Source: Paracoccaceae bacterium (GTDB lineage Bacteria; Pseudomonadota; Alphaproteobacteria; Rhodobacterales; Rhodobacteraceae). From it: a DNA stretch of 64,000 bases. Position numbers and translations under genes: made by a program. The DNA is taken from assembly GCA_965229765.1 (NCBI GenBank), contig CBDDJT010000003.1, forward strand, positions 967,311 to 1,031,310, read 5' to 3'. Within the stretch, counting starts at the first letter, position 1. Every line of letters starts with the position of its first letter. The notes under the pieces were generated by a model. That model saw nothing but the letters and a program-made list of their open reading frames with translations. It did no database searches and was not told where the DNA came from. Shown piece by piece: positions 1 through 47,932 of the stretch.

Positions 1-3000
1 CCCGCCGTTCCCGTCCGAGATCTCGTAGGTAAAGCTCTCCTGCGCCGTTTCCGGGGGCGCCAGATGTTCATAGGCGCCGCCGGGATCGAAGGCGAAGCTG
101 CCGTCGGCGTTCAGCGTCAGGGTCGCACCCGAATTCAGCGTCGCCGTATCGCCGGGCGCGAAGTCCTGCGGCACCTCGTCCACCGAAACGGAAAAGCCGG
201 TGACCGCCAGGGCGTCGCTTGCGTCAACATCCGTATCGTTGCCCAGCACGTTGCCGATCAGCGCCGTGTCCTCGCTGGTCGCCGGGGTGTCGTCGTTCGC
301 CGCGGGATCGTCGTTCACCCCGGTGATCTCGATGGTCGTGCTCTGCGCCACACGCTCATCGCCCGAGACCACGTCGAACGTCACCTCGAAAACCGCGGAT
401 TCGCCCGCGGCCAGACTGTCGTAATTCGCGGTATCGACGGTCAGCGTGCTGCCCTGCACCAGGAACGCAACCTGCGTGCTGTCGCTGCCCGGCGCCACCG
501 CCACCTGGACGGAATCCGGGTCGATCGCCGGCACGTCGGGCGCATCCGCGTCGCTGGCCGTCAGAACGTCATTCAGGTCGAAAACCACGTTAGACAGGAC
601 ACCGGCGTCCCCCTCCGGCACCGGCGCGAAGTCTTCTGTGGACACCTGGACCGGGTCGTTCACCCCGGTGATCGTGATGGTGACGGAGGCCGTGCTCGTT
701 CCGCCGTTGCCGTCCGAGATCTCGTAGCTGAAGCTCTCCTGCGCCTCGTCGCCCGCGCCCAGGCCCTCGAAGGCGCCGTTCGGGTCGAAGTCGTAGGTCC
801 CGTCCGCGGCCACCGTCAGCGTCGCGCCAGAGGCCAGCTCGATCAGGCTGCCCGCCGCGTGGTCCGTCGGCTCGCCATCGACGTCGGTCGTGACGCTGGT
901 CACCGAGAGCGCGTCCTCCTCGGCATCCGTGTCATTGCCCAGCAGCGCACCGGCCAGCGCGCTGTCCTCGTCGGTCGTGGCCGTGTCGTCGCCCGCCACC
1001 GGGGCGTCGTTCACGCCGGTGACGGTGATCGTCACGCTCGCCGTGCTCGTCCCGCCGTTGCCGTCCGAGATCTCGTAGCTGAAGCTCTCCTGCGCCTCGT
1101 CGCCCGCGCCCAGGCCCTCGAAGGCGCCGTTCGGGTCGAAGTCGTAGGTCCCGTCCGCGTTCACCGTCAGCGTGGCCCCCGAGGCCAGCTCGATCAGGCT
1201 GCCCGCCGCATGGTCCGTGGGCTCGCCATCGACGTCGGTCGTGACGCTGGTCACCGAGAGCGCGTCCTCCTCGGCATCCGTGTCATTGCCCAGCAGCGCA
1301 CCGGCCAGCGCGCTGTCCTCGTCGGTCGTGGCCGCGTCGTCGCCCGCCACCGGGGCGTCGTTCACGCCGGTGACGGTGATCGTCACGCTCGCCGTGCTCG
1401 TTCCGCCGTTGCCGTCCGAGATCTCGTAGCTGAAGCTCTCCTGCGCCTCGTCGCCCGCGCCCAGGCCCTCGAAGGCGCCGTTCGGGTCGAAGTCGTAGGT
1501 CCCGTCCGCGTTCACCGTCAGCGTGGCCCCCGAGGCCAGCTCGATCAGGCTGCCCGCCGCGTGGTCCGTCGGCTCGCCGTCCACCTCGACGCGCACCGAG
1601 GTGACGCTCAGCGCGTCCTCCTCGGCATCCGTGTCGTTGCCCAGCAGCGCACCGGCCAGCGCGCTGTCCTCGTCGGTCGTGGCCGTGTCGTCGCCCGCCA
1701 CCGGGGCGTCGTTCACGCCGGTGACGGTGATCGTCACGCTCGCCGTGCTCGTCCCGCCGTTGCCGTCCGAGATCTCGTAGCTGAAGCTCTCCTGCGCCTC
1801 GTCGCCCGCGCCCAGGCCCTCGAAGGCGCCGTTCGGGTCGAAGTCGTAGGTCCCGTCCGCGTTCACCGTCAGCGTGGCCCCCGAGGCCAGCTCGATCAGG
1901 CTGCCCGCCGCATGGTCCGTGGGCTCGCCATCGACGTCGGTCGTGACGCTGGTCACCGAGAGCGCGTCCTCCTCGGCATCCGTGTCATTGCCCAGCAGCG
2001 CACCGGCCAGCGCGCTGTCCTCGTCGGTCGTGGCCGCGTCGTCGCCCGCCACCGGGGCGTCGTTCACGCCGGTGACGGTGATCGTCACGCTCGCCGTGCT
2101 CGTTCCGCCGTTGCCGTCCGAGATCTCGTAGCTGAACGTCTCCTGCGCCTCGTCGCCCGCGCCCAGGCCCTCGAAGGCGCCGTTCGGGTCGAAGTCGTAG
2201 GTCCCGTCCGCGTTCACCGTCAGCGTGGCCCCCGAGGCCAGCTCGATCAGGCTGCCCGCCGCGTGGTCCGTCGGCTCGCCATCGACGTCGGTCGTGACGC
2301 TGGTCACCGAGAGCGCGTCCTCCTCCACGTCCGTGTCATTGCCCAGCAGCGCACCGGCCAGCGCGCTGTCCTCGTCGGTCGTGGCCGCGTCGTCGCCCGC
2401 CACCGGGGCGTCGTTCACGCCGGTGACGGTGATCGTCACGCTCGCCGTCGAGGTCCCGCCGTTGCCGTCCGAGATCTCGTAGCTGAACGTCTCCTGCGCC
2501 TCGTCGCCCGCGCCCAGGCCCTCGAAGGCGCCGTTCGGGTCGAAGTCGTAGGTCCCGTCCGCGTTCACCGTCAGCGTGGCCCCCGAGGCCAGCTCGATCA
2601 GGCTGCCCGCCGCGTGGTCCGTCGGCTCGCCATCGACGTCGGTCGTGACGCTGGTCACCGAGAGCGCGTCCTCCTCCACGTCCGTGTCATTGCCCAGCAG
2701 CGCACCGGCCAGCGCGCTGTCCTCGTCGGTCGTGGCCGCGTCGTCGCCCGCCACCGGGGCGTCGTTCACGCCGGTGACGGTGATCGTCACGCTCGCCGTC
2801 GAGGTCCCGCCGTTGCCGTCCGAGATCTCGTAGCTGAACGTCTCCTGCGCCTCGTCGCCCGCGCCCAGGCCCTCGAAGGCGCCGTTCGGGTCGAAGTCGT
2901 AGGTCCCGTCCGCGTTCACCGTCAGCGTGGCCCCCGAGGCCAGCTCGATCAGGCTGCCCGCCGCGTGGTCCGTCGGCTCGCCATCGACGTCGGTCGTGAC

Positions 3001-5910
3001 GCTGGTCACCGAGAGCGCGTCCTCCTCCACGTCCGTGTCGTTGCCCAGCAGCGCACCGGCCAGCGCGCTGTCCTCGTCGGTCGTGGCCGTGTCGTCGCCC
3101 GCCACCGGGGCGTCGTTCACGCCGGTGACGGTGATCGTCACGCTCGCCGTGCTCGTCCCGCCGTTGCCGTCCGAGATCTCGTAGCTGAAGCTCTCCTGCG
3201 CCTCGTCGCCCGCGCCCAGGCCCTCGAAGGCGCCGTTCGGGTCGAAGTCGTAGGTCCCGTCCGCGTTCACCGTCAGCGTGGCCCCCGAGGCCAGCTCGAT
3301 CAGGCTGCCCGCCGCATGGTCCGTGGGCTCGCCATCGACGTCGGTCGTGACGCTGGTCACCGAGAGCGCGTCCTCCTCGGCATCCGTGTCATTGCCCAGC
3401 AGCGCACCGGCCAGCGCGCTGTCCTCGTCGGTCGTGGCCGCGTCGTCGCCCGCCACCGGGGCGTCGTTCACGCCGGTGACGGTGATCGTCACGCTCGCCG
3501 TGCTCGTTCCGCCGTTGCCGTCCGAGATCTCGTAGCTGAACGTCTCCTGCGCCTCGTCGCCCGCGCCCAGGCCCTCGAAGGCGCCGTTCGGGTCGAAGTC
3601 GTAGGTCCCGTCCGCGTTCACCGTCAGCGTGGCCCCCGAGGCCAGCTCGATCAGGCTGCCCGCCGCGTGGTCCGTCGGCTCGCCATCGACGTCGGTCGTG
3701 ACGCTGGTCACCGAGAGCGCGTCCTCCTCCACGTCCGTGTCATTGCCCAGCAGCGCACCGGCCAGCGCGCTGTCCTCGTCGGTCGTGGCCGCGTCGTCGC
3801 CCGCCACCGGGGCGTCGTTCACGCCGGTGACGGTGATCGTCACGCTCGCCGTCGAGGTCCCGCCGTTGCCGTCCGAGATCTCGTAGCTGAACGTCTCCTG
3901 CGCCTCGTCGCCCGCGCCCAGGCCCTCGAAGGCGCCGTTCGGGTCGAAGTCGTAGGTCCCGTCCGCGTTCACCGTCAGCGTGGCCCCCGAGGCCAGCTCG
4001 ATCAGGCTGCCCGCCGCGTGGTCCGTCGGCTCGCCATCGACGTCGGTCGTGACGCTGGTCACCGAGAGCGCGTCCTCCTCCACGTCCGTGTCGTTGCCCA
4101 GCAGCGCACCGGCCAGCGCGCTGTCCTCGTCGGTCGTGGCCGTGTCGCCGCCCGCCACCGGGGCGTCGTTCACGCCGGTGACGGTCACGCTGACGGTCCC
4201 CGTGGTGCTGGCGCCGCCCCCATCGGTGACGCTGACCCCGACGGTCACCGTGCGGGTTTCGCCCGCGCCGAGGTCGTCGAACCCGCCCCCGGGCGTGAAG
4301 GTCAGAACGCTGCCCTCCAGCGTGAACGACCCGCCCTCGGCTGCCGTGCCCTCTGTCACCAGTGCATAGTCGAAGTCGCCCGGATCGTCATCCGCATCGG
4401 GGTCGCTGACCAGCGTGGCAAGGTCCAGCGTGGCGGGCCCGTCCTGCGTGGCGTCCAGCGTGCCTTCCTCGAAGGTCGGTGCGTCGTTCACGCCCGCGAC
4501 CTCCAGCGTCACGGTCCCTGTCGCGGTGTTCCCGGCGGCATCGGTCACGCTGAAGGTAAAGCTGTCCGTGCCCTCGAAATCCGGATCGGGAATATAGACG
4601 AACGAGCCGTCCTGAAGCACCACAACCGTGCCGTTCTCGGCCCCCGTGACAAGACCGTAGGCCAGATCGTCGCCATCTGCATCGGTGGCCGTCAGCGTGC
4701 CGGCCAGCCGGGTGTCCTCGGTCGCGTCCAGACTGGCGTCGTCCGGCACCGGCGCGGCGTCGGGGGCGGCGTCGGGGGCCGGGACCTCGTCCTCGGGGAC
4801 AGGGGCCACGGGGTCGTCCGGCGTGGTGCCGCCGTCGCCGGCGGGCGGCGGGGTTCCGCCGGTGTCACCCGCGTCCAGATCCTCGCCCGCGCCGGTGTCA
4901 AACGGCGTGCCGGTCTCGGGGTCGACCTCGTCTTCGGCGGTGGCGCTGCCCAGCTCGACAAAGGTCTCACCCGCGTCCACCCGCTGCACCGCCAGCGCGA
5001 AGGCGGCGGCGGCATCGGCCAGGATTTCTTCGTCGCTGGCAAGGTCATCGACGGTGCGCTCGATCTCGATGGGCTCGGCCCCGCCGGGAGGCTCGATGAT
5101 CCACGCGCTGTCGGTGTCCTCGATCGTGGCGATCAGGTTGCCGTTGAGATCGCGCAATTCGATCGTCCCGATGCCGCCGTCCGGATCGACGTTAAGCGAG
5201 ACCTCGACCGTGGTGACGCCATTCACTGTCTGGATATCGACCAGCACGGTCGTGCCGCGAATGCCCATCGTGGCGGCGGGCGTGGTCACCTCCATTCCGC
5301 CGGTCTTGGCAACCTGCCCGGCGATGAAGACGAAACTGCCCTCGATCAGGTTGAAGGCGCCGCTGTTGCCCTCGGTGGCGTTGGGGTCGTAGATCAGCTC
5401 GTCCAGCAGCATCCGCGAGCCCGAGGCGAGCGTGAAGATCGTGCCGTCCGCGAAGGTCAAAGAGCAGGTGCCGCCGTCCTCGGTGATGACCACGTCGTTC
5501 TGGAAGACCTTCATGCCCACGCGCAGCGTCTCGACGGTGCCGTCGGCGCGCTGCACGCGCGCCACGCCTTCCAGCGTCTCGACCTGTCCGATGGGGTTGC
5601 CGGCGATCGCGCCGCCGGCCTGCGCGTACTGGCCCGGCGCCTCTGGCCCGGTCAGCCGCTCGACCACGTGGGGCGCCAGCATGGCGCCCTCGGGCGTGGT
5701 CAGCCCGGCGGGCGCGCCCTGGCCGAAATAGCCCAGCACGCGCACGTCCGCGCCATCCTCGTTCAGCAGCAGAAGGTCCGGGCCGTCACGGTGAAATTCC
5801 GCCCGGAACAGCAGCGCCGGATCGGGCACGACGACGGGCGCGCCGTTTTCCACATGGAGAACAATCGTCTCCTGTGGGTGGTCCGTATCGGAAATAAGAC
5901 CGAACAGCAT
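1..5910 (-). CDS. Giant repetitive adhesin-like protein, N-terminal part only (ORF runs off the left edge). It has a FecR-like N-terminal domain, an acidic/Pro-rich linker, then cadherin-like / tandem-95 (VCBS-type) repeats. Probable T1SS substrate.
   Basis: My own reverse-complement translation starts at ATG 5910-5908, with AGAGG 6 nt upstream. It reads MLFGLISDTDHPQETIVLHVENG...VQRADGTVETLRVGMKVFQNDVVITEDGGTCSLTFADGTIFTLASGSRMLL (FecR-type motif). Repeated units follow: VNDAPVAGDDAATTDEDSALAGALLGNDTDVEEDALSVTSV...ETFSYEISDGNGGTSTASVTITVTGVNDAP. The frame stays open to position 1. The gene is absent from the supplied track because no stop lies in the window. The listed + ORF 64..5991 is its Arg-rich antisense shadow. 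Confidence 0.85.
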   Translation of the reverse strand, partial: MLFGLISDTDHPQETIVLHVENGAPVVVPDPALLFRAEFHRDGPDLLLLNEDGADVRVLGYFGQGAPAGLTTPEGAMLAPHVVERLTGPEAPGQYAQAGGAIAGNPIGQVETLEGVARVQRADGTVETLRVGMKVFQNDVVITEDGGTCSLTFADGTIFTLASGSRMLLDELIYDPNATEGNSGAFNLIEGSFVFIAGQVAKTGGMEVTTPAATMGIRGTTVLVDIQTVNGVTTVEVSLNVDPDGGIGTIELRDLNGNLIATIEDTDSAWIIEPPGGAEPIEIERTVDDLASDEEILADAAAAFALAVQRVDAGETFVELGSATAEDEVDPETGTPFDTGAGEDLDAGDTGGTPPPAGDGGTTPDDPVAPVPEDEVPAPDAAPDAAPVPDDASLDATEDTRLAGTLTATDADGDDLAYGLVTGAENGTVVVLQDGSFVYIPDPDFEGTDSFTFSVTDAAGNTATGTVTLEVAGVNDAPTFEEGTLDATQDGPATLDLATLVSDPDADDDPGDFDYALVTEGTAAEGGSFTLEGSVLTFTPGGGFDDLGAGETRTVTVGVSVTDGGGASTTGTVSVTVTGVNDAPVAGGDTATTDEDSALAGALLGNDTDVEEDALSVTSVTTDVDGEPTDHAAGSLIELASGATLTVNADGTYDFDPNGAFEGLGAGDEAQETFSYEISDGNGGTSTASVTITVTGVNDAPVAGDDAATTDEDSALAGALLGNDTDVEEDALSVTSVTTDVDGEPTDHAAGSLIELASGATLTVNADGTYDFDPNGAFEGLGAGDEAQETFSYEISDGNGGTSTASVTITVTGVNDAPVAGDDAATTDEDSALAGALLGNDTDAEEDALSVTSVTTDVDGEPTDHAAGSLIELASGATLTVNADGTYDFDPNGAFEGLGAGDEAQESFSYEISDGNGGTSTASVTITVTGVNDAPVAGDDTATTDEDSALAGALLGNDTDVEEDALSVTSVTTDVDGEPTDHAAGSLIELASGATLTVNADGTYDFDPNGAFEGLGAGDEAQETFSYEISDGNGGTSTASVTITVTGVNDAPVAGDDAATTDEDSALAGALLGNDTDVEEDALSVTSVTTDVDGEPTDHAAGSLIELASGATLTVNADGTYDFDPNGAFEGLGAGDEAQETFSYEISDGNGGTSTASVTITVTGVNDAPVAGDDAATTDEDSALAGALLGNDTDVEEDALSVTSVTTDVDGEPTDHAAGSLIELASGATLTVNADGTYDFDPNGAFEGLGAGDEAQETFSYEISDGNGGTSTASVTITVTGVNDAPVAGDDAATTDEDSALAGALLGNDTDAEEDALSVTSVTTDVDGEPTDHAAGSLIELASGATLTVNADGTYDFDPNGAFEGLGAGDEAQESFSYEISDGNGGTSTASVTITVTGVNDAPVAGDDTATTDEDSALAGALLGNDTDAEEDALSVTSVRVEVDGEPTDHAAGSLIELASGATLTVNADGTYDFDPNGAFEGLGAGDEAQESFSYEISDGNGGTSTASVTITVTGVNDAPVAGDDAATTDEDSALAGALLGNDTDAEEDALSVTSVTTDVDGEPTDHAAGSLIELASGATLTVNADGTYDFDPNGAFEGLGAGDEAQESFSYEISDGNGGTSTASVTITVTGVNDAPVAGDDTATTDEDSALAGALLGNDTDAEEDALSVTSVTTDVDGEPTDHAAGSLIELASGATLTVAADGTYDFDPNGAFEGLGAGDEAQESFSYEISDGNGGTSTASVTITITGVNDPVQVSTEDFAPVPEGDAGVLSNVVFDLNDVLTASDADAPDVPAIDPDSVQVAVAPGSDSTQVAFLVQGSTLTVDTANYDSLAAGESAVFEVTFDVVSGDERVAQSTTIEITGVNDDPAANDDTPATSEDTALIGNVLGNDTDVDASDALAVTGFSVSVDEVPQDFAPGDTATLNSGATLTLNADGSFAFDPGGAYEHLAPPETAQESFTYEISDGNGG
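659..4168 (-). repeat. Tandem array of ten near-identical 351-bp (117-codon) units inside the adhesin gene, flanked by more diverged repeats of the same type
   Basis: The boundary motif gttcac(c/g)ccggtga..gtgat..gt.ac recurs at 659, 1010, 1361, 1712, 2063, 2414, 2765, 3116, 3467 and 3818, and in degenerate form at 4169. The + strand shadow ORFs at 1172, 1523, 1874 ... 3980 show the same 351-bp spacing. Units differ at only a handful of positions. Confidence 0.95.
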
Positions 5911-6170
5911 GCCAAACCTCTAAAAAACGTCGAAAAAAGTCTTTGGGATACTAGTCGAAAAGGAGATTCGAGCAAGAAAATTACCACGTGAAGTAAGACG
6001 GCGCGGTTGACGCGCGGCACCGTGTCGGCCTTTCTGATCCCCGAAGCGGGCGCATCACCGGCAACGCACAGGCAGGACCACTGAAACGGATCGCACGCAA
6101 ACTGGGATGGGGGCGGCTGGCGGGGATTGTCCTGCTGCTGGCGCTGCTCGCGCTCAGGGTCGGCGATCCC

Positions 6171-8291
6171 GTGGCTCTGGCCGACATCCGCAATTCGACC
6201 TTCGACATCTACCAGCGCCTCAGCCCCCGGCCCGCCACGCCCGCCCCCGTGGCGATCATCGACATCGACGACCCCAGCATCGAGGAGATCGGCCAGTGGC
6301 CCTGGCCGCGCGCCCGCTTTGCCGAGGTGATCGACAAGGTGATGGCCGACGGTGCCGTGGCCGTGGCCTTCGACATCGTCTTCGCCGAGCCCGACCGCCT
6401 GTCGCCGCCCGCCATCGCGGCAGCCAACCCGGGCATGGAGCCCGCGCTGCGCGACGCGCTGGCCGCCCTGCCCGACACCGACATGCAACTGGCGCAGGCA
6501 ATGGGCCGCGCCCGCGTGATCGTCGGCCAGACAAGCGTGCGCAGCGCGCTGGCCAACCGGGAACAGGCGGTGGCGATGCGCGACGTGCCGCACGCCTTTC
6601 TGGGCCCCGATCCCACGCCCTTCCTGCAAAAGTTCCCCGACATCGTTCAGAACCTGCCGGTGCTGGAAGACGCCGCCGCGGGGCGCGGGGTCTTCACCGT
6701 GCGTCCCGACAGCGACGGCATCTACCGCCGTGTGCCGCTGGTGATGATGGTGCAGGACAAGATCCGCCTTGGCCTTGCACCGGAACTGCTGCGCGTCGCA
6801 ACCGGCGGCGCCGCCTTTGCCGTGCGCGCCAACGAGGCCGGGGTCGACGGCATCGTGCTCGCCCGTCAGCTTGTCCGGACCGACCGCGACGGCAGTGTCT
6901 GGCCGTGGTTCGGCCCCTCGGACCCGGCCCGTTTCGTCGCCGCCGCCGATCTTCTGGCCGGCAGGATGCCGCCGGGGCGGCTGGCCGGGCATCTCGTGCT
7001 GGTCGGCACCTCGGCGATCGGGCTGGAAGACTTCCGCCCCACACCGCTGGGCGTGCCCATGCCCGGGGTCGAGATCCACGCGCAGGTGCTGGAAAACATC
7101 CTTGGCCAAAGCCTGCTGTCGCGCCCCAACTACATGGTGGGCGCGGAACTTGCGGCGGCGCTGGTGCTTGGGCTGCTGGTCATCGCGCTGGCCCCGGTGC
7201 TGCCGGCGGGCTGGCTGGTGGCGCTGTCGCTGGCGCTGCTCGGCGGGGTCGCCGGGGCCAGCGTCTGGCTTTTCCAGTCCCAGCGCCTGCTGCTCGACGC
7301 GGGGTTCCCGGTGGCCGCGACACTGGCCATGGTCATGCTGATGTCCACGGCCAACTACCTGGCCGAGGAACGCCAGCGCCGCCAGATCCGCAGCGCCTTC
7401 GGCCAGTATGTCTCGCCCGCGCTGGTGGCCCGTCTTGCCGACAACCCGGCGGAACTGACGCTTGGCGGCGAACGCCGCGACCTGTCGATCCTGTTCAGCG
7501 ACGTGCGCGGCTTCACCACCATCGCCGAAAGCTTCCGCGACGATCCCGCCGGGCTGACGCAGCTGATGAACGCCTTCCTGTCGGAACTGTCGCACGCCAT
7601 CCTCGACGAGGCAGGCACCATCGACAAGTTCATGGGCGACGCGGTCATGGCCTTCTGGAACGCACCGCTCGACGTGCCCGACCATGCCGCGCACGCCTGC
7701 CGCGCCGCTCTGGCGATGCGCGCCCGCGTGGACGATCTGAACGCCCGCCGCGGCGCCGAAAGCGGCGGCTCCGCGCAGGTCATCGACGTGGGCATCGGCA
7801 TCAACACCGGGTCGTGCACCGTGGGCAACATGGGCTCCGACACGCGCTTCGACTACACCGCTCTGGGCGACGCGGTGAACCTCGCCTCGCGGCTTGAAGG
7901 CCAGTCCAAGACCTATGGCGTCGGCATCATCCTGGGCGACGCGACGGCCAGCGCGGTGCGGGGCGGCTTCGCCATGCTTGAACTCGACCTGATCCGCGTG
8001 AAGGGCAAGACAGAGCCCGAACGGGTCTTTGCCCTGCTGGGCGGCGCCGAGGTTCTGACGCAGGACGCCTTCACCCCGCTGGCAGAGGCCAACGCCGGGA
8101 TGCTGGCGGCCTACCGCGCCCGGAACTGGGACGCCGCCGAAACCGCCCTGGCCAGGATCGAGGCCGCCGCCCCCGCGATCGGCGCAGATCTCTCGGCCTA
8201 CGCCGCGCTCTACCGTGACCGGCTGGCCGATGTCCGCGCCAATCCCCCCGGCCCCGACTGGGACGGCGTCTTTACCGCGACGTCCAAATAG
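6171..8291 (+). CDS. CHASE2-domain membrane sensor fused to a class III adenylate cyclase
   Basis: The CHASE2-type start is VAIIDIDDPSIEEIGQWPWPRARFAEVIDKV. TM helices follow (LVLGLLVIALAPVLPAGWLVALSLALLGGVAGASVWLF). The cyclase core is SILFSDVRGFTTIAE...IDKFMGDAVMAFW...FDYTALGDAVNLASRLE. The Lys (IDKF) and Asp (FDYT) pair is the ATP-specifying combination in class III cyclases. The track start is GTG 6171, but the real start is probably upstream (see finding). Confidence 0.85.
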   Translation: MALADIRNSTFDIYQRLSPRPATPAPVAIIDIDDPSIEEIGQWPWPRARFAEVIDKVMADGAVAVAFDIVFAEPDRLSPPAIAAANPGMEPALRDALAALPDTDMQLAQAMGRARVIVGQTSVRSALANREQAVAMRDVPHAFLGPDPTPFLQKFPDIVQNLPVLEDAAAGRGVFTVRPDSDGIYRRVPLVMMVQDKIRLGLAPELLRVATGGAAFAVRANEAGVDGIVLARQLVRTDRDGSVWPWFGPSDPARFVAAADLLAGRMPPGRLAGHLVLVGTSAIGLEDFRPTPLGVPMPGVEIHAQVLENILGQSLLSRPNYMVGAELAAALVLGLLVIALAPVLPAGWLVALSLALLGGVAGASVWLFQSQRLLLDAGFPVAATLAMVMLMSTANYLAEERQRRQIRSAFGQYVSPALVARLADNPAELTLGGERRDLSILFSDVRGFTTIAESFRDDPAGLTQLMNAFLSELSHAILDEAGTIDKFMGDAVMAFWNAPLDVPDHAAHACRAALAMRARVDDLNARRGAESGGSAQVIDVGIGINTGSCTVGNMGSDTRFDYTALGDAVNLASRLEGQSKTYGVGIILGDATASAVRGGFAMLELDLIRVKGKTEPERVFALLGGAEVLTQDAFTPLAEANAGMLAAYRARNWDAAETALARIEAAAPAIGADLSAYAALYRDRLADVRANPPGPDWDGVFTATSK

Positions 8292-8309
8292 GGCGCAGGC
8301 AGCAGCCCC

Positions 8310-9632
8310 CTACCTTTCCCGCAGCGCCTCGGACTGGGCCCGCAGGATCGGCTTGGCAAGATAGCTCAGCACCGTCTTGCGGCCGGTCTGGATGTCGATC
8401 TGCGCCACCATGCCGGCGCTGATCGCAAACCGCTCGCCACCCCGTTCCAGCGCGGTCTCGTCGGTGCGCACCACGACGCGGAAGAACTCTGTCCCCTCGG
8501 CATTCGCTATCGTGTCCGCGCCGATCCGCTCCACCGTGCCCGGCAAGGAGCCATAGACGAGGTAGTCATAGGCCGTGATCTTGACCGACGCGCGGTCGCC
8601 CGGCTCGATGAAGGCCACGTCCTGCGGCCGCACCTCGGCCTCGATCAGAAGCCCGTCCTCGATCGGCACGATCTCGACCAGCGGCGCGCCGGGCTGGATT
8701 ACCGCGCCCAGCGTGGTGATCGCCACCGTGTTCACCGTGCCGCGCACCGGCGCGCGCAACTGCGCCCGCGTCACCCGGTTTTCCGCCGCCCGCAGCCCCT
8801 CGCGCACCACCGCAAGCTCTACCTGCAACCGCGCCAGACGTTCCTCGGCGGTCAGCCGGTACGCCCCCTCGGCCGAGGCCATCTGGTTTTTCGCCGCGCT
8901 GATCGCCGCCGCCAGCTTGGGCTCTGTCGCCTCCAGCACCTGCAACTCGCCGCGCGCTTCCGCCAGCCGCGCCTGCAGCCGCAGCACCTCGATCTCGGGC
9001 ACCGCGCCCCGGCTGGCAAGATCCTCTGTCAGCGTCACCTCGCGCTCCAGCGGCGCCACCACCTCCAGCAGCTTGGCCCGAGTCGCGCGCAACTCGGCCA
9101 GCTCGCTGTCGCGCTGCGCCAGCTGGTCGGCCAGCACGGTCATCTCGGTCTGCAACTGCGCCCGGCGCGAGGCGAAGACGCGCCGCTCGGCGGCCACCGC
9201 GCCCGGCGCCCGCGCCTCCAGCCCCTCGGGAAAGGCGATCTCGTCGGCGCCCGACGCCTCGGCGGCCACGCGCGCGGTCTCGGCCATCAGCCCCGCCTCA
9301 CGCTCCAACAGTTCGCCGCGCTGCGCGGCCAGTCCCGTGTCGTCGATCTGCATCAGCACCTGGCCCGGCACCACCACGTCGCCCGGCGCCACGTCGATCG
9401 AGGTCACCACGCCCGCCTCGGGACTTTGCACCACCTGCACCTGGCTGGACGGGATGACCCGCCCCATGCCGCGCGTCACTTCCTCGATCTCGTGCGTGGC
9501 GGCCCAGAAGGCGAACCCGCCGATCCCCGCCAGCACCGCAAGGATCAGGGGCCAGGCGCCGATGGCGCGCGCCGTGCCCGCCGTTCCCGCCAGATCCCCG
9601 CCAAGGGTGTCGTCCGCGCGGCTGCCGAACAT
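8310..9632 (-). CDS. HlyD-family type I secretion membrane fusion (periplasmic adaptor) protein
   Basis: The N-terminal anchor helix is WPLILAVLAGIGGFAFWA. A long coiled-coil segment follows (AQRGELLEREAGL...ELAELRATRAKLLE), then a beta-barrel tail. Its start lies 4 nt after the stop of the upstream ABC gene. Confidence 0.85.
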   Translation of the reverse strand: MFGSRADDTLGGDLAGTAGTARAIGAWPLILAVLAGIGGFAFWAATHEIEEVTRGMGRVIPSSQVQVVQSPEAGVVTSIDVAPGDVVVPGQVLMQIDDTGLAAQRGELLEREAGLMAETARVAAEASGADEIAFPEGLEARAPGAVAAERRVFASRRAQLQTEMTVLADQLAQRDSELAELRATRAKLLEVVAPLEREVTLTEDLASRGAVPEIEVLRLQARLAEARGELQVLEATEPKLAAAISAAKNQMASAEGAYRLTAEERLARLQVELAVVREGLRAAENRVTRAQLRAPVRGTVNTVAITTLGAVIQPGAPLVEIVPIEDGLLIEAEVRPQDVAFIEPGDRASVKITAYDYLVYGSLPGTVERIGADTIANAEGTEFFRVVVRTDETALERGGERFAISAGMVAQIDIQTGRKTVLSYLAKPILRAQSEALRER

Positions 9633-9635
9633 CGC

Positions 9636-11807
9636 CTACCCCGCCCCTTGCGTCTGCACCGGCGCGGTGCGCGCCAGCGCCTGCCTGCGCAACTGCTCCA
9701 GCACCTCGTCCTTCGGCCCGTCGAGGATCTTGCGCCCGCCGTCGATCACCACGAAGCGCGCCGCGCGGTTGGCCAGCGACTGGCGGTGCGTGCACAGCAC
9801 AAGCCCCGTGCCGTCCGCCGTCAGCGCATCGAGCCTTGCCGCCACCCGCGCCTCCATCTCCTGATCCATCGCGCTGGTGGGCTCGTCCAGGAACAACAGC
9901 CGCGGCGCCCGCAGGATCAGCCGCGCCAGCGACAACCCCTGCCGCTGCCCGCCCGACAGGCGGCTGCCCTTTTCGCCCACGAAGGTCTCCAGCCCGTCGG
10001 GCATCGCCGCCACGGCGGCATCCATCCCCGACAGGTAAAGCGCGCGCTCGATCTCGGCGGGCCGCGCGTGCGGGCGGCCCAGGATCAGGTTCTCGCGGAT
10101 CGTCCCGGTGAAAAGCTCGGAATCCTGCGGCAGATAGCCGATCCCAGCGCGCAGTTCCGCCGGGTCGTACTGCCCGATGGCGTGCCCGTCGATCAGGATC
10201 TGGCCCTTCTCGGCCACCAGCAGCCCCGCCAGCAGCCGCCCCAGCGTCGTCTTGCCCGATCCCACCCGGCCCAGAAGCGCCACCGCCTCTCCGGGCTCGA
10301 TGGTCAGGGTCAGCCCGTCCAGCGCCGGTTTCGGCGCGTCGGGGTAGGCAAAGCTGACGCCCTCGACCGACACCCGCGCAGCGCGCACCCGCAGCCCGCT
10401 TTTCACCGCCCCCGCGCGTTCCGGCTCCAGCGCCATGAAGCGTGTCAGCGCCCCCATCGCCTTGGCGGCGTATTGCGCGCGAAAGATCGTCTGCGCGATG
10501 GTCCCCAGCGGCGACAGCACCCGCCCCGCCAGAAGGTTCGCCGCGATCAGCGCGCCCACCGTGATCGCCCCATCGGCCACAAGAAACACGCCCCAGACGA
10601 TGATCGCCACGCTGACCGCCTGCGTCACCAGCCCCGCGCCATTGGCCGCAAGCGACGACCAGAACCGGCTTTGCCCGTTCACCCGGGACGAGGCCGCGAC
10701 CGCGCGCTCCCATTCGCGCTGCATCGCGGGTTCGGCGTTCAGGCTCTTGACCGTCTCGATCCCCAGAAGCGTTTCCACCAGCACCACGTGCCGCTTGCCC
10801 GACATCTGCTGCGCCTTGGCCGCCGCCCGCCCCAGCGGCAACTGCGCCAGAAAGGCAAGGATCAGCACCACCGGCACCGCCACCAGCGGCACCAGCGCCA
10901 GATCCCCCACGATCAGCCACAGCATCCCAAGGAAGACCCCGATGAACATCAGGTCGATCAATGACACGAAACTGGCCGAGGCGAAGAATTCGCGCACCGC
11001 GTCGAAATCGCGGATATGGCTCGCGATGCCCGCCGCGCCGCCCGGACGGTTCAGGATCGGCAGCGCCATCGCCTGCCGGAAGAGGGTCGAGGCCACCTGC
11101 GTGTCCACCCTCCGCGAGATGCGCTCCAGCACATGCGCCCGCACAGCGCGCATGAGCAGATCCAGCCCGATGGCGATGGCCACCCCCAGCGCCAGCGTCC
11201 ACAGCGTCACGAAGGCAAGGTTGGGGATCACCCGGTCGTAGACGTTCATCACGAACAGGGGCAGCGCCAGCATCAGCAGGTTGATCGCCAGCGCGGCAAG
11301 GATCACCTGCACCCAGCCGCCCCAGTTGGCCCGCACCGCGCCCCAGAACCAGTATGCGGGACGTTGGCCGGCGGCCCGCGCCTCGGGCGACAGGCGGCTT
11401 TCGGCGGGGTCGCCCTCTGGCGCGACCAGCAGCGCCTCGCGCCGCACGCGGCGGTTCAGGTCGCGGCGGCGGATCTCGCGCTCCAGCGGCCCCTCGGCGG
11501 GATCGATCACCCGGCACACGCCCGCGCGCCGGTCGATGCCCGTCAGGATCAGCGGCCCGCCCTTCCGGGTGAACAGCACGCAAGGCAGCACGGCGGGATC
11601 CAGCGTCGTCACCCGGCGCAGCACGAGGCGGGACGCCAGCCCCACCTCGGCCAGCCCGCGCGCGACAAGCGCGGGATCGGTCCCGTCAAATCCCTGCGGC
11701 AACCCGCCCAGCACGGCGGCGGCGGAAAACGGGCGCTGATGATGGTCGGCCAGCCAGCGGACCACAGCGATCCCGGCCTCTTCCTGCGGGGGCCCGTCCC
11801 CCTTCAA
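9636..11807 (-). CDS. Type I secretion system ABC transporter permease/ATPase with an N-terminal C39-like cytoplasmic domain (LssB/LapB-like)
   Basis: The six-TM exporter core is followed by Walker A GRVGSGKTTL, signature LSGGQRQ and Walker B LLFLDEPTSAMD. About 150 aa of N-terminal extra domain precede the first TM. The track start is TTG 11807 with no clear RBS, so the start is uncertain (GTG 11765 is an alternative). Confidence 0.85.
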   Translation of the reverse strand: MKGDGPPQEEAGIAVVRWLADHHQRPFSAAAVLGGLPQGFDGTDPALVARGLAEVGLASRLVLRRVTTLDPAVLPCVLFTRKGGPLILTGIDRRAGVCRVIDPAEGPLEREIRRRDLNRRVRREALLVAPEGDPAESRLSPEARAAGQRPAYWFWGAVRANWGGWVQVILAALAINLLMLALPLFVMNVYDRVIPNLAFVTLWTLALGVAIAIGLDLLMRAVRAHVLERISRRVDTQVASTLFRQAMALPILNRPGGAAGIASHIRDFDAVREFFASASFVSLIDLMFIGVFLGMLWLIVGDLALVPLVAVPVVLILAFLAQLPLGRAAAKAQQMSGKRHVVLVETLLGIETVKSLNAEPAMQREWERAVAASSRVNGQSRFWSSLAANGAGLVTQAVSVAIIVWGVFLVADGAITVGALIAANLLAGRVLSPLGTIAQTIFRAQYAAKAMGALTRFMALEPERAGAVKSGLRVRAARVSVEGVSFAYPDAPKPALDGLTLTIEPGEAVALLGRVGSGKTTLGRLLAGLLVAEKGQILIDGHAIGQYDPAELRAGIGYLPQDSELFTGTIRENLILGRPHARPAEIERALYLSGMDAAVAAMPDGLETFVGEKGSRLSGGQRQGLSLARLILRAPRLLFLDEPTSAMDQEMEARVAARLDALTADGTGLVLCTHRQSLANRAARFVVIDGGRKILDGPKDEVLEQLRRQALARTAPVQTQGAG

Positions 11808-11852
11808 CGGGACGGGCGGGCACGCCCGTGGCGGAAGGGCCCGGAACCCGTG

Positions 11853-13268
11853 TCATTCCAGTGCCGGAATGTCCGTGCGGAATATCGCGGCGGGATTGCC
11901 CTTGGCGCGGTCCTGGAACGTTGGATCAAGCGGGATTTCCGCGGGCTGGATGCCGAAATGCGATGCCAGACGGCTTTGCGCGGCCAGAAGCTTGTAGCGG
12001 CTGAACGATAGGCTCGCATCCGCGCTGACATCCTGAAAGCGCACGTTGTAATAGCTGCGCTCGGCCGACAGAAGATCCAGCAGGCTCCGCGTGCCCGCCT
12101 CGAACTGGTCCTTGTACTGCTCTACGATCTGGCGGCTGGCGTGCAGCTGCCGGTCGATCAGCTGCACCCGCGCAAGGTTGGTCTGATGGCTGTTCCACGC
12201 CCGCGCGGCCAGCTCCTGCACGTCGCGCACCACCTCGTCGCGCTCGGCCATCGCCTCGCGCGTGCGCTGGGTATAGGCCACCCGGCGCGGCTGACGACCG
12301 CCGGTAAAGAACTCCCACCGGAACTGGAGCCCGACGAACGCATCGGTCTCGGAGCCCGAGTTGCCGCCCTGGTTGGTGCCATAGGTGACGCCCGCGCGCA
12401 GCTTGACCTCTGGCAGAAGGTCGGCCTCGCCGATCCCCTGCTCGTAATAGGTCCGCCGCACCAGCGTGTTGGCATAGCGCACCTGATAGCTGTTCTCGAC
12501 GGCCTTCACCGTCAGCACCTGCAACGAATTGGGCAGCCCCGTGACATGCGGCACCGCCATGCCGCCGTGCGGCGCGTGACCGATCACCGCCTCATAGCGC
12601 GCCACGGCATCGGCCAGCGCGCGTTCCACGTCCAGCAGGGCCAGGCGCGCCGCCAGCGTGCGCTCGTCGATGGTGAACCCGTCCGCGGCGGGCAGGCGCC
12701 CGCCTGCCACAAGGTCTTTCACCTGCCGCCCGATCTCGTGGTGGCGCGCAAGGTTCTGCGCCATCACGCTGCGCAGGTACCGGTGGCGCATCACGTCGAT
12801 GTAGGCCTCGACCGCGTTCAGCGCCATCGTCTCGGACGCATCCAGCAGCCGGAAGATCGCGCCATCCACCTGCGCCGCGCCCCGGTAGACGAGGTTGGCG
12901 CGCCGGTAGCCGTCGAAGATGGTGTACTCCGCCGCGATCCCCACCTCGGCGGTCAGCCGGGTCTGGCCGTTGTTGGCCGCCGACAGCCGCCCCGGGGCAT
13001 CGACGTAATTGGCGCCCGCGTCGCCGAACAGCGACAGCGTCGGCAGGAACTCTCCCTGAAGCGACAGTAGCTCGAACGCGCTGGCCTGCACATCGGCGTT
13101 CGCGGCCCGCTGCGCCGGGTTCTGCGTGACGGCCGCGCGCACCGCATCGACAAGGGGTTCCGCCGCCGCCCCCCCTGCGCCCAGAAAAAGCGCCATCACA
13201 GCGCCCAGCATACCCGTCCGTCGCCCCCCAAGGCGGCAGTCACCCGTCATTATCACCGGCAGCACCAT
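11853..13268 (-). CDS. TolC-family outer membrane efflux/secretion protein
   Basis: It has a signal-like N-terminus (MLGAVMALFLGAGGAAA) and a two-fold internal repeat OEP architecture of typical length (~470 aa). It sits directly upstream of the T1SS ABC and HlyD genes. Confidence 0.8.
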   Translation of the reverse strand: MVLPVIMTGDCRLGGRRTGMLGAVMALFLGAGGAAAEPLVDAVRAAVTQNPAQRAANADVQASAFELLSLQGEFLPTLSLFGDAGANYVDAPGRLSAANNGQTRLTAEVGIAAEYTIFDGYRRANLVYRGAAQVDGAIFRLLDASETMALNAVEAYIDVMRHRYLRSVMAQNLARHHEIGRQVKDLVAGGRLPAADGFTIDERTLAARLALLDVERALADAVARYEAVIGHAPHGGMAVPHVTGLPNSLQVLTVKAVENSYQVRYANTLVRRTYYEQGIGEADLLPEVKLRAGVTYGTNQGGNSGSETDAFVGLQFRWEFFTGGRQPRRVAYTQRTREAMAERDEVVRDVQELAARAWNSHQTNLARVQLIDRQLHASRQIVEQYKDQFEAGTRSLLDLLSAERSYYNVRFQDVSADASLSFSRYKLLAAQSRLASHFGIQPAEIPLDPTFQDRAKGNPAAIFRTDIPALE

Positions 13269-13385
13269 CCCGAAATTTGAACGCCCCGGCAGCAGGGGCG
13301 CGTTAAAACCCTTTGGAAGTTAACGGATATGTGCGCCATGACAACCGTGCGCAGACATCCTGGCCGGGATTCATCCACAGCGTGG

Positions 13386-13769
13386 CTAGGTTGCATACCC
13401 CGCCACGGCGGCAAGGATCAGAACATAGGTCACCTGGTGCGCGAACTGGTCGGCGCCCATGGCGATCCAGTAGCCCTGCCGCTCTGGCGTCAGGTGCAGC
13501 AGACGGCCGATCTGCACCTTTGACCAGTCGATATGGTAGTGCAGCACCACCTCTGCCACCACAACTGCCGCCACCACGGTCATCGACACCGGCGCAAGCA
13601 GAAGCACGGGAACCGTGCAAAGCCCGTGAACCCCGGCATGCAAAAGGCCACCGGGATGCCCGTAGCGGCCCTTGTTGCGCACCATCCAGCCGCTCTGGAA
13701 CAGGTAGTCGGCGGCCAGGTGCTTGATCTGGAACAGCATGAGAAGCCACAGAATCGTGCCGGCGCTCAT
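13386..13769 (-). CDS. DUF3307-family small membrane protein
   Basis: FQIKHLAADYLFQ is a DUF3307-type motif as I recall it. The protein is hydrophobic and 127 aa long. Its start overlaps the stop of the upstream cNMP-binding gene by 4 nt. Confidence 0.6.
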   Translation of the reverse strand: MSAGTILWLLMLFQIKHLAADYLFQSGWMVRNKGRYGHPGGLLHAGVHGLCTVPVLLLAPVSMTVVAAVVVAEVVLHYHIDWSKVQIGRLLHLTPERQGYWIAMGADQFAHQVTYVLILAAVAGYAT

Positions 13770-14470
13770 GGCGATTCGCCCGTACGGGCCAAACGTGCAT
13801 TGGCTTCGATCAGCTTGCGGCGGGTCGCCGTGCTCAGGCTTTGCTCAAGAAACAGGCGGAATTCTCCATCGTTGCGGCAGATACGCCGCAATGTATCCCC
13901 GGGTACTGTAAAGACCCGCGCGCCTGATTCGACAATGACACTTGCCGACGCAGGGCCCGCTTCAAGGACATTCATCTCGCCAACCATGCCGCGCGCGATC
14001 TCGGCGACCTTGGCGCCACCGGCCACCACCCGCGCCGAGCCCGAGGCCACGTAGTGCAGATGCGTCACCGGCTCGCCCTCTTCGGTCAGCACCACACCGT
14101 CGCGTACATCGCGCCATGTCCCGGCATCCAGCAGCCGCCGCGCGGCGGTCTTGGGATAATGCGGCAGCGCGTCGTTCAGGAACGCCGTCTCCTCGGCGTT
14201 GAACCGCACCCTGTGCCGCAGCCAGAAGATCCGCGCGATCCCGATGATGCTGATGACGATCCAGAAGATCTGGATGATGGCCGCAGACAGGTTGAACGAC
14301 GTGGGCAGGCTGATCAGCACCAGAGTGGCGGCAATCAGGTTGAGCAAGGCATAGGTGTAGGAAGAGCCCCGGATCAGGCCGCCTTGAAGGGCGGCATAGG
14401 ACCCGATGTAGAACGCGACACCGGCAAATCCGACCCAGTCAAGAAGGCCAGAGGCGTAGAACGCCGACAT
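13766..14470 (-). CDS. Membrane-anchored cyclic-nucleotide-binding (CAP_ED-like) protein
   Basis: The N-terminal ~95 aa form three hydrophobic helices (WVGFAGVAFYIGSYAAL, YALLNLIAATLVLISL, AAIIQIFWIVISIIGIARIFW). The C-terminal half has the cNMP-binding beta-roll pattern (VLTEEGEPVTHLHYVASGSARVV...GMVGEMNVLEAGPASASVIVESGARVF). I prefer ATG 14470 (GGGGGG 6 nt upstream) over the track's GTG 14491. Confidence 0.7.
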   Translation of the reverse strand: MSAFYASGLLDWVGFAGVAFYIGSYAALQGGLIRGSSYTYALLNLIAATLVLISLPTSFNLSAAIIQIFWIVISIIGIARIFWLRHRVRFNAEETAFLNDALPHYPKTAARRLLDAGTWRDVRDGVVLTEEGEPVTHLHYVASGSARVVAGGAKVAEIARGMVGEMNVLEAGPASASVIVESGARVFTVPGDTLRRICRNDGEFRLFLEQSLSTATRRKLIEANARLARTGESP

Positions 14471-21939: not shown

Positions 21940-22090
21940 CGGCGGCCCTCTCGGAGGTTGCGGACCGGATCCATCGGTCCCGCCCCATCACATAGGCCAA
22001 ACGGCCAAAACAGTCCATGACAGCGGTTCGCTGTTGACGGCGCCCCCCGCAAGTCCCGACACTGCCGGAAAATCCAAGGGAGGAAGATCC

Positions 22091-31860: not shown

Positions 31861-31901
31861 TCCCGAAGGCGCCAGCCGCCGATCACGGAAAAATCACGGC
31901 G

Positions 31902-34463: not shown

Positions 34464-34471
34464 GGCCGGGG

Positions 34472-37821: not shown

Positions 37822-37992
37822 CTGCTTTACCCCCATCCCGGCGGCCCGGATTCCGGGAACGCACCGGGCCCCAACGGACCGGCATCCAGATTGACGTTGC
37901 GTCAACGCTGCTGCTGCAACGGACCGCCGTCAACCAATCCGAACGCTGCCCGACCACATTTCACCGGCCCGTGTCATTTGGGCAAAAGCTGC

Positions 37993-47916: not shown

Positions 47917-47932
47917 CGGAGGAGACCGAGAA

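Follow-up and report, generated by a model that had tools for sequence, protein, structure and literature searches.

A giant type I secretion adhesin with a FecR-like plug is linked to a CHASE2 cyclase across Alphaproteobacteria

One of the main ways in which Gram-negative bacteria settle firmly on a surface is through giant adhesins of the two-step type I secretion system (T1SS) class, and to our knowledge the only well-understood control of these adhesins is the LapD/LapG switch operated by cyclic diguanylate (c-di-GMP). The LapA-LapBCE-LapD/LapG system of Pseudomonas fluorescens and the MpIBP system of Marinomonas primoryensis share a giant repeat adhesin, an ATP-binding cassette (ABC) transporter of the LssB/LapB type with an HlyD adaptor and a TolC channel, and a RIN-like plug. 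The RIN domain of the Marinomonas ice-binding adhesin (Protein Data Bank (PDB) entry 5IX9) is periplasmic, exceeds the pore size of TolC, and keeps the adhesin bound to the cell (PMC5550230). RtxA of Legionella pneumophila is likewise a retention-module adhesin (PMC6959600). Here, we describe a locus in a stretch of 64,000 nt from a Paracoccaceae bacterium (the window), in which a giant adhesin and its T1SS genes adjoin a signalling enzyme of another kind, a predicted adenylate cyclase with a periplasmic CHASE2 domain. Domain calls throughout are from Pfam and NCBIfam models.

Two further systems resemble this locus on its signalling side. In Sinorhizobium meliloti, the genes clr (SMc02175), cyaD1 (SMc02176, encoding a CHASE2 protein), and smc02177 (encoding an extracytoplasmic FecR-domain protein) are consecutive, and the cyclic AMP (cAMP) of this cascade controls a surface or interaction phenotype (PMC5498481). 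The CyaD1/CyaD2/CyaK-Clr-SMc02177/SMc02178 system therefore has in common with the window a CHASE2 cyclase beside a receptor for cyclic nucleotide monophosphates (cNMP) and an extracytoplasmic FecR protein (PMC5498481). Clr, however, is a soluble Crp-type DNA-binding protein with a TGTTN8AACA box, whereas the corresponding window protein is a three-helix membrane protein without the canonical arginine and its locus has no Clr box; the FecR protein of S. meliloti is small, whereas the FecR domain here heads a T1SS giant adhesin. Burkholderia and its relatives carry an operon of a LysM-FecR protein and a CHASE2 kinase that is tied to biofilm, and the signals recognised by CHASE2 are described as unknown (PMC5192318). 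This 'BiofilmReg' operon (response regulator, LysM-FecR, CHASE2 histidine kinase) shares the FecR-CHASE2 pairing and the biofilm link with the window (PMC5192318), but has a two-component kinase output, a small LysM FecR partner, and no T1SS, where the window has a cyclase and an adhesin.

We searched genomes and metagenomes with the 315-aa N-terminal module of the window adhesin, and de-replication at 90% identity left 68 clusters, 53 of them informative. Many giant genes are headed by this module. An orthologous CHASE2 cyclase (CHASE2-domain E <1e-30) was present in 31 of the 53 informative loci and a T1SS in 27; within the closest group, the cyclase was found at 19 of 23 loci. The genes occur in three orders: T1SS, convergent cyclase, and divergent adhesin, as in the window (type A); adhesin then cyclase on one strand (type B); and cyclase, TolC, ABC, HlyD, and adhesin, all co-directional (type C). 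Sulfitobacter sediminilitoris and Shimia aestuarii, for instance, have TolC-ABC-HlyD genes converging with a CHASE2 cyclase gene, from which a FecR-headed adhesin gene diverges, and no cNMP pair of the kind described below. A search from the CHASE2 domain alone led to FecR-headed giants and/or a T1SS at three of four sampled loci and to nothing at the fourth; by this route we found a 2268-aa FecR-headed protein adjoining the cyclase in Bradyrhizobium japonicum and two metagenome contigs with a T1SS and a cNMP-binding gene. The cyclase-adhesin linkage persists from about 40% to 65% identity of the N-terminus, across orders of Alphaproteobacteria. Because it survives this divergence as well as reshuffled gene order, we consider a functional coupling between the cyclase and the adhesin with its T1SS quite likely. 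The initial annotation of the window had proposed a functional tie between the adhesin/T1SS locus and cyclic-nucleotide parts; the conserved linkage of the cyclase bears out this central idea, and the neighbourhood extends well beyond this strain (31 of 53 loci, three gene orders). As judged from sequence, the core of the cassette is a giant cadherin/Ig-repeat adhesin with a FecR-like plug, an LssB/LapB-type T1SS, and a CHASE2 class IIIb cyclase.

All genes of the initial annotation were found, on the same strands and at essentially the same coordinates. From left to right, the locus consists of the following features.

1 to 4710, minus strand: adhesin repeat region, visible from about aa 400 to 1970, with the C-terminus beyond the left window end (Big_9, Cadherin_4, and Cadherin_5 matches; G+C at third codon positions (GC3) 0.93).
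4711 to 4953, minus strand: acidic, Pro-rich low-complexity spacer between the N-terminal module and the repeats, aa ~320-400 (sequence; dip of the predicted local distance difference test score (pLDDT) at aa 322-330).
4975 to 5052, minus strand: conserved helix closing the N-terminal module, aa 287-312 (secondary structure of the model; conserved in the N-terminus alignment).
5056 to 5604, minus strand: FecR-like beta-sandwich, aa 103-285 (Pfam FecR, Foldseek, phmmer).
5608 to 5649, minus strand: disordered, highly conserved linker GPEAPGQYAQAGGA, aa 88-101 (pLDDT <50 at aa 92-101).
5641 to 5868, minus strand: family-specific N-terminal prefix domain with the pattern 'DL.L...G...R..DYF', aa ~15-90 (alignment and model).
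5911 to 6080, no strand: divergent adhesin/cyclase intergenic region (sequence; alignment of 17 orthologous intergenic regions).
6081 to 8291, plus strand, start uncertain: CHASE2 class IIIb adenylate cyclase, as predicted from Pfam CHASE2 and Guanylate_cyc.
8310 to 9632, minus strand: T1SS periplasmic adaptor of the HlyD/LapC type (TIGR01843, 362 bits, cutoff 209).
9636 to 11807, minus strand: LssB/LapB-subfamily ABC permease/ATPase of the T1SS, whose N-terminal domain is C39-like (TIGR03375).
11853 to 13268, minus strand: TolC-family outer-membrane channel (Pfam OEP in two stretches; TIGR01844, 160 bits, below the cutoff of 225).
13386 to 13769, minus strand: DUF3307 small membrane protein with His-rich motifs (PF11750, 47.8 bits).
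13766 to 14470, minus strand: CBU_0592-cNMP membrane protein (NF047864, 87 bits; PF00027).

The adhesin begins at ATG 5910 on the minus strand and extends past the left window edge. Open reading frames (ORFs) run on both strands of 1-5919; G+C at the three codon positions of the minus frame is 0.69/0.50/0.93, which identifies the minus strand as coding for the adhesin and the plus-strand ORF at 64..5991 as its mirror shadow. Pfam models found 13 stretches each of Big_9, Cadherin_4, and Cadherin_5 and a FecR match at aa 139-237, and NCBIfam models matched tandem-95, VCBS, and T1SS-143 repeats and gave a BapA/LapF-type match. In a structural model of the N-terminus (pLDDT 81.5), a prefix at aa ~15-90 is followed by a linker at aa 92-101, a sandwich at aa 105-285, a helix at aa 287-312, and then the spacer. 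Foldseek matched the sandwich to the periplasmic domains of the FecR-type anti-sigma regulators 4m0n and PupR (6ovk) and to 5ix9, the MpIBP RIN domain, which fits the adhesin N-terminus with a TM-score of 0.78 and a root-mean-square deviation of 1.0. The FecR/PupR domains are periplasmic C-terminal signalling domains that bind the periplasmic domain of a partner and have the same fold as aa 103-285 of the adhesin. Unlike those regulators, the adhesin has no anti-sigma N-terminal domain, no transmembrane (TM) anchor, and no TonB-dependent transducer partner, and its domain is part of a secreted adhesin.

The relation to the retention plug is visible in sequence as well as in fold, since phmmer aligned residues 10-86 of 5ix9 with aa 103-179 of the adhesin (E 5.9e-6, 77 residues). 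A placement of the 5ix9 match in the prefix (aa 15-80) was dropped: a search with aa 1-115 was empty, and one with aa 100-246 returned aa 103-179. The prefix itself had no sequence match in the PDB, and the MpIBP plug, which starts at about residue 10, has no counterpart to this prefix domain of about 90 aa. By these comparisons, the adhesin's "FecR" domain is an extended LapA/MpIBP retention plug, with aa ~103-179 as the homologous part. The NCBIfam model retention_LapA is not reached by the window adhesin, and an ortholog (locus L095 of our set; loci are numbered in this way below) matches it at the same position below threshold, with 29.6 of 50 bits; we therefore describe the relation as homology and not as curated membership. 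The ABC transporter scores 721.7 bits against TIGR03375, the LssB type, above the cutoff of 693.1 and across model positions 6-695, and its N-terminal domain matches the Vibrio C39-like domain 3b79 weakly (E 0.055). The plug homology and the LssB/LapB-type transporter together place the system in the two-step adhesin class, and the comparison with LapA drawn in the initial annotation is apt. The Legionella lssXYZABD/RtxA system has an ABC transporter of the same subfamily, TIGR03375, but no cyclase is described there, whereas one is linked here.

The locus departs from LapA and MpIBP in the surroundings of the plug, which is extended to a full FecR/PupR-like sandwich and preceded by the prefix and the QYAQAG linker. 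Residues A96 and Q97 of the linker are invariant in the N-terminus alignment, and the motif GP..P.QYAQ[ASV]G is kept in 74-80 of 120 N-terminal homologs, which makes the conserved QYAQAG a candidate processing or recognition site. A LapG-type cleavage site in the adhesin, which the initial annotation had set against its own proposal, is not conserved in the alignment: [TAP]AA[GV] occurs beside the plug in only 9 of the 120 homologs, and in lacking a conserved LapG di-alanine site the family differs from LapA and MpIBP. By analogy with the RIM segment of MpIBP, the acidic Pro-rich spacer is a candidate for the part that threads the TolC channel. Among orthologs, the complete protein of L099 has four GGxGxD-like RTX motifs, some of them near the C-terminus, and L095 and L085 show none.

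The cyclase gave 189 bits with the CHASE2 model PF05226 and 65 bits with Guanylate_cyc. The gene encodes the periplasmic CHASE2 domain at ~6132-7178 and the catalytic domain at ~7479-8024, with three further TM helices between them at ~7190-7420. Among solved structures, the catalytic domain is closest to that of Pseudomonas aeruginosa CyaB (3r5g, E 5e-34), and the substrate and metal motifs FSD, MGD, IDKF, DYT, VNLA, and SRLE are identical in the two proteins. All six catalytic residues are in place, which we take, from what is established for class III cyclases, to be the two metal-binding Asp residues, the transition-state Asn and Arg, and a Lys/Thr pair. Since IDKF and DYT match CyaB, the specificity pair is Lys/Thr and the enzyme belongs to class IIIb; the earlier prediction of an adenylate cyclase stands, with Lys/Thr in place of the Lys/Asp pair then given. 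The product is accordingly expected to be cAMP. CyaB makes cAMP on surface contact through the Pil-Chp system; its membrane domain is MASE2, not CHASE2, and it is not known to be linked to a T1SS adhesin.

The start of the window cyclase is unusual. Its frame is open from 5997, with no ATG, GTG, or TTG ahead of GTG 6171, and TM1 is encoded at about 6117-6160, upstream of this first canonical start, so that starting there would delete TM1. Ten orthologs begin at an ATG 10-15 aa before TM1, where the window offers only CTG 6081 or ATC 6090. As the initial annotation had it, the gene is divergent from the adhesin and shares the adhesin promoter region, the intergenic stretch 5911-6080. A -35-like GTTGAC at 6006-6011 faces the cyclase and is conserved, as a GTCAAC block, in the alignment of the 17 orthologous intergenic regions. 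An inverted repeat of 10 pairs followed by a T-rich tail (6005-6030, plus strand) overlaps the conserved GTTGAC element and may form a structure in the 5' leader or act as a terminator-like element.

The secretion-gene run is headed by the CBU_0592-cNMP gene, which overlaps the DUF3307 gene by 4 nt. The membrane half of its product is the named family CBU_0592 (PF26604 / NF047864), and proteins with the CBU_0592 plus cNMP_binding architecture form a family of more than 100 clusters. In the structural model (pLDDT 89), three TM helices at aa 2-87 are followed by a cNMP-binding fold at aa ~92-200 and a long C-terminal helix. Foldseek matched the fold to CRP, GlxR, HCN, Epac, and CNBHD folds with E down to 1.7e-9 (top matches 1e-8 to 1e-9), and the modelled domain has the eight-stranded beta-roll with flanking helices. 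No DNA-binding domain was detected in the protein with Pfam or NCBIfam models. The binding cassette reads GEMNVLEAGP-A-SASV, compared with GEPRSATV in MlotiK1 and GPRTSSAV in GlxR: Gly-Glu and Ser-Ala are kept, and the canonical phosphate-clamping Arg is Ala174 (nt 13949-13951). The initial annotation of a membrane cNMP receptor at the head of the secretion genes was thus right about the position and the anchor, which has three helices, but the cassette is not that of a canonical receptor. One ortholog (L094 927-1757, plus strand) reads GEMNVMEPG-R-ASA: in place of the Pro-Ala of the family it has an Arg, one residue ahead of the usual position, and no other variant of this kind was seen.

Animal Popeye-domain (POPDC) proteins also have three TM helices followed by a cNMP-binding fold with a non-canonical cassette. 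They have their overall architecture in common with the window protein, with no evidence of shared descent for the membrane part. The Popeye model PF04831 had no match in the window protein at E <=0.01; among its distant relatives, three (P0105-P0107), and only these, carry PF04831 matches.

To place the cNMP protein, we tabulated its gene neighbours with a 9-sequence profile and one genome per species. A class III cyclase lies <=10 kb from the CBU_0592-cNMP gene in ~13 of ~52 loci and is immediately adjacent in ~9, and the cyclases beside it have three architectures, found for example in Roseibaca and Roseisalinus. At ~11 unrelated loci, DUF3307 directly follows CBU_0592-cNMP, and in L087, L090, L094, and L097 it lies ahead of TolC. 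From this tabulation, the cNMP/DUF3307 pair is a mobile module tied to cyclases and not to the T1SS, and the independent link to cyclases argues that CBU_0592-cNMP belongs to cNMP signalling. GC3 is 0.77-0.79 in the two genes against 0.85-0.93 in their neighbours, and G+C dips to 0.66 at 12001-14000; the low GC3 of 13386-14470 fits a separately acquired module. The idea that CBU_0592 and DUF3307 are general accessories of Lss-type T1SS (LssX/LssY/LssZ) found no support; standalone CBU_0592 genes of Rhodobacteraceae have no T1SS neighbours.

The initial annotation had asked whether cyclase, cNMP protein, DUF3307, and T1SS genes recur as a quartet beside giant adhesins. The complete quartet does recur, in a Maritimibacter sp. 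(L087), which has a SulP-STAS-cNMP gene in addition, and on the metagenome contigs L090 and L094, but the association of the cNMP protein with the T1SS is not constant. In the closely related L005 (91% identity), the cNMP protein, DUF3307, and T1SS are kept and the contig ends inside HlyD, before the cyclase and adhesin would be reached. A small remnant with a cyclic-nucleotide-binding (CNB) domain lies between the cNMP and DUF3307 genes in L090 and L094, and the full SulP-STAS-cNMP gene occupies this place in L087, which suggests a deletion in the lineage of the window. Split ORFs were seen at three other sister loci (L085 10001-17520, L169 6001-8233, and L171 6001-8236, all on the plus strand), where the FecR head and repeats, or CHASE2 and Guanylate_cyc, appear as two adjacent ORFs; these could be frameshifts, repeat assembly errors, or pseudogenisation.

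We then collected CNB genes with an iterated CNB profile at 15 well-sampled loci with both a T1SS and a CHASE2 cyclase, and found them in about 8 of the 15. Their architectures are CBU_0592-cNMP, SulP-STAS-cNMP, cNMP-SpoIIE (a PP2C phosphatase), a cNMP-domain ion channel, cNMP-EAL, and small CNB proteins. The canonical Arg (PRTA/RTA) is kept in all effectors other than CBU_0592-cNMP, except one small CNB protein (L110, PSTA). Because these effectors keep the canonical residue, a conventional cyclic nucleotide is very likely the messenger at the sister loci; the window receptor is the exception. At L170 (2-1279, minus strand), genes for a FecR-headed adhesin, a T1SS, and a CHASE2 protein adjoin one for a cNMP_binding-EAL fusion with a canonical RTA cassette, which might connect cAMP with c-di-GMP turnover. 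Regular-expression matches to GGDEF at sister loci were discarded because they lie in unrelated proteins or in shadow frames; the EAL domain of L170 alone is genuine.

The initial annotation saw no GGDEF, EAL, LapD, or LapG gene at the locus, and we also found none: GGDEF, EAL (DDFGTG), and LapG-type (C[ED][DG][YF][AV]) motifs were absent from six-frame ORFs >=120 aa across the 64 kb, in a motif screen and not a search with hidden Markov models. LapD, LapG, GGDEF, and EAL were likewise absent from the annotated sister loci L085-L087, L169, and L171. The locus thus differs from LapA and MpIBP in having no LapG, LapD, GGDEF, or EAL component beside it, and from LapA in that the linked signalling enzyme is a predicted adenylate cyclase and not a c-di-GMP receptor. 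Our literature search returned no link between T1SS adhesins and CHASE2 or cAMP cyclases, and no functional work on DUF3307 or CBU_0592.

What CHASE2 might sense at this locus is suggested by the recurrent company of FecR-like domains. All four loci that were picked through the cNMP protein and have a CHASE2 cyclase also carry an adjacent small FecR protein with a Sec signal peptide, and in Roseicyclus a FecR-like periplasmic protein lies beside the CHASE2 sensor. In a mirror-tree comparison, the partial correlation between plug and CHASE2 was 0.43 given the catalytic domain (permutation p 0.0005), and the converse was 0.22, but the value dropped to 0.12 once HlyD was controlled for. We propose that the adhesin would be exported C-terminus first and stall with its N-terminal module in the periplasm, on the precedent of MpIBP and LapA. 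CHASE2, in the same compartment, would read the FecR-like module directly or through a shared periplasmic cue, as the recurrent FecR-CHASE2 pairing suggests, and the cyclase, with intact catalytic residues and the Lys/Thr pair, would produce cAMP. Effectors encoded at the locus would read this signal: in the window, the CBU_0592-cNMP protein with its partner DUF3307 at the head of the secretion-gene run, and at sister loci a SulP-STAS-cNMP transporter, a cNMP-PP2C phosphatase, a cNMP-gated channel, a cNMP-EAL protein, or a small cNMP-binding protein. In sum, adhesin display would be coupled to a cAMP signal that tunes secretion, retention, or downstream surface behaviour. Our observations cover which genes are present, their homologies, and their conserved linkage; the proposals on what CHASE2 senses, what the Ala-variant receptor binds, and what output follows are inferred. 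We hold it to be about an even chance that the window is one copy of a conserved alphaproteobacterial cassette in which the cyclase monitors the periplasmic plug of the adhesin and signals through cAMP. That the cyclase senses the plug directly is possible, at somewhat under even chances. The fuller version, in which CHASE2 has the FecR-like plug of the surface-anchored adhesin as its physiological partner and effectively its ligand, and the cyclase reports through cAMP whether the adhesin is parked in its TolC channel, under load, or released, is tentative and rather unlikely, and we doubt that the CBU_0592-cNMP/DUF3307 pair gates secretion or retention.

Several observations weigh against plug monitoring through cAMP. 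Ala stands at the clamp-Arg position in 79 of 79 alignable family members, an invariant column of the alignment, and with this replacement the window receptor may bind cAMP weakly, something else, or nothing. Among ~55 species with CBU_0592-cNMP, a T1SS adjoins only in L005, and CBU_0592-cNMP and DUF3307 are missing from many cassette loci, for example L085 and L086. More distant homologs of the adhesin N-terminus often have no cyclase. Co-evolution of plug and CHASE2 is weak after correction for shared history (partial correlation 0.12 given HlyD), and SMc02177, the FecR protein of S. meliloti, is dispensable for perceiving the tested plant signal (PMC5498481). The window cyclase, with no canonical start before TM1, could be an N-terminally defective or impaired copy. 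Finally, the absence of LapD and LapG covers only the 64-kb window and about six annotated orthologous loci.

Other explanations account for parts of these data. CHASE2 might sense a cue unrelated to the adhesin, with cAMP acting through a distant Crp/Clr regulator to switch the adhesin promoter and the T1SS on or off, so that adjacency reflects co-regulation. The S. meliloti precedent, in which CyaD1 and Clr act on smc02177/smc02178, the shared divergent adhesin/cyclase intergenic region, and CRP-like palindromes (<=2 mismatches) in four (L086, L097, L109, L110) of the 17 orthologous intergenic regions all fit such transcriptional feedback. However, the window adhesin-cyclase region contains no Clr box (TGTTN8AACA near the relevant promoters) and no CRP-like site at <=2 mismatches, no operator is conserved across the 17 regions, the CNB search detected no Crp-type gene in the window, and the effectors of these loci are membrane or enzymatic proteins in which no DNA-binding domain was detected. 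Transcriptional feedback would also leave unexplained why FecR-like domains specifically accompany CHASE2, and we judge it unlikely. A conventional Lap system, with LapG/LapD-like proteins encoded elsewhere controlling retention and release and the cyclase and cNMP genes as an unrelated or secondary linked module, would agree with the homology of the plug to the MpIBP RIN domain and with the LssB/LapB-type transporter, and the cNMP-EAL protein of L170 would then join cAMP to c-di-GMP. Against it stand the rarity of [TAP]AA[GV] in the N-termini (9 of 120), where QYAQAG is conserved instead, the retention_LapA model, not reached in the window and sub-threshold in L095, the lack of LapD, LapG, GGDEF, and EAL in the window and at L085-L087, L169, and L171, and a literature in which we found no report of Lap (LapD/LapG) systems in roseobacters; this explanation is quite unlikely.

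Neither does a shared mobile or variable island, on which the cyclase, the cNMP/DUF3307 genes, and the T1SS adhesin would travel with no functional coupling, explain the pattern well. The lower GC3 of the cNMP and DUF3307 genes would fit modular insertion, and transposase genes flank the sister loci L085 and L088, but the cyclase-adhesin linkage is kept at ~40-65% identity, in three gene orders, and in different alphaproteobacterial orders, and by our own rough estimate a CHASE2 cyclase would be adjacent by chance at well under 1% of loci. Hitch-hiking is therefore very improbable overall; from the sequence comparisons, chance adjacency appears effectively refuted for the cyclase and is conceivable for the cNMP/DUF3307 pair.

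Elsewhere in the window, the gene at 20443-21987 (minus strand), ~6 kb from the secretion genes, encodes a protein of 515 aa that contains a GDSL-lipase domain as well as 8 RTX nonapeptide motifs (HemolysinCabind) and is likely a second T1SS substrate. Three long ORFs with coding-like GC3 (31842-33254, plus; 34043-36130, plus; 36244-37929, minus) had no Pfam match at E <=0.001; the ORF at 34043-36130 has an unusually high G+C at second codon positions, 0.65, and may be miscalled. GC skew flips from negative to positive near 47-48 kb (~46000-49000), where the cumulative skew has its minimum, and this switch coincides with a change of the predominant gene strand from plus to minus.

The joint occurrence of a giant adhesin, its T1SS, and a CHASE2 cyclase in many marine and soil Alphaproteobacteria suggests an undescribed cAMP-based monitoring or control of attachment. 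For the same class of adhesins that is governed by LapD and LapG, the locus points to a second control logic, cAMP-based, in which a CHASE2 cyclase replaces or adds to the c-di-GMP switch, and its hosts are ecologically important, including roseobacters that colonise algae and particles as well as Bradyrhizobium. The analysis also delineates more than 100 membrane proteins as a family that combines a cNMP-binding fold with an Arg-to-Ala cassette and is genomically tied to cyclases. By nominating FecR-like periplasmic domains as partners, it makes the input of CHASE2 testable, and such partners would link the adhesin loci with the CyaD1 locus of S. meliloti and the biofilm operon of Burkholderia. 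If the plug is indeed the ligand of CHASE2, the cassette would be an outside-in attachment sensor, the cAMP counterpart of LapD/LapG, and would provide the first defined input for a CHASE2 domain.

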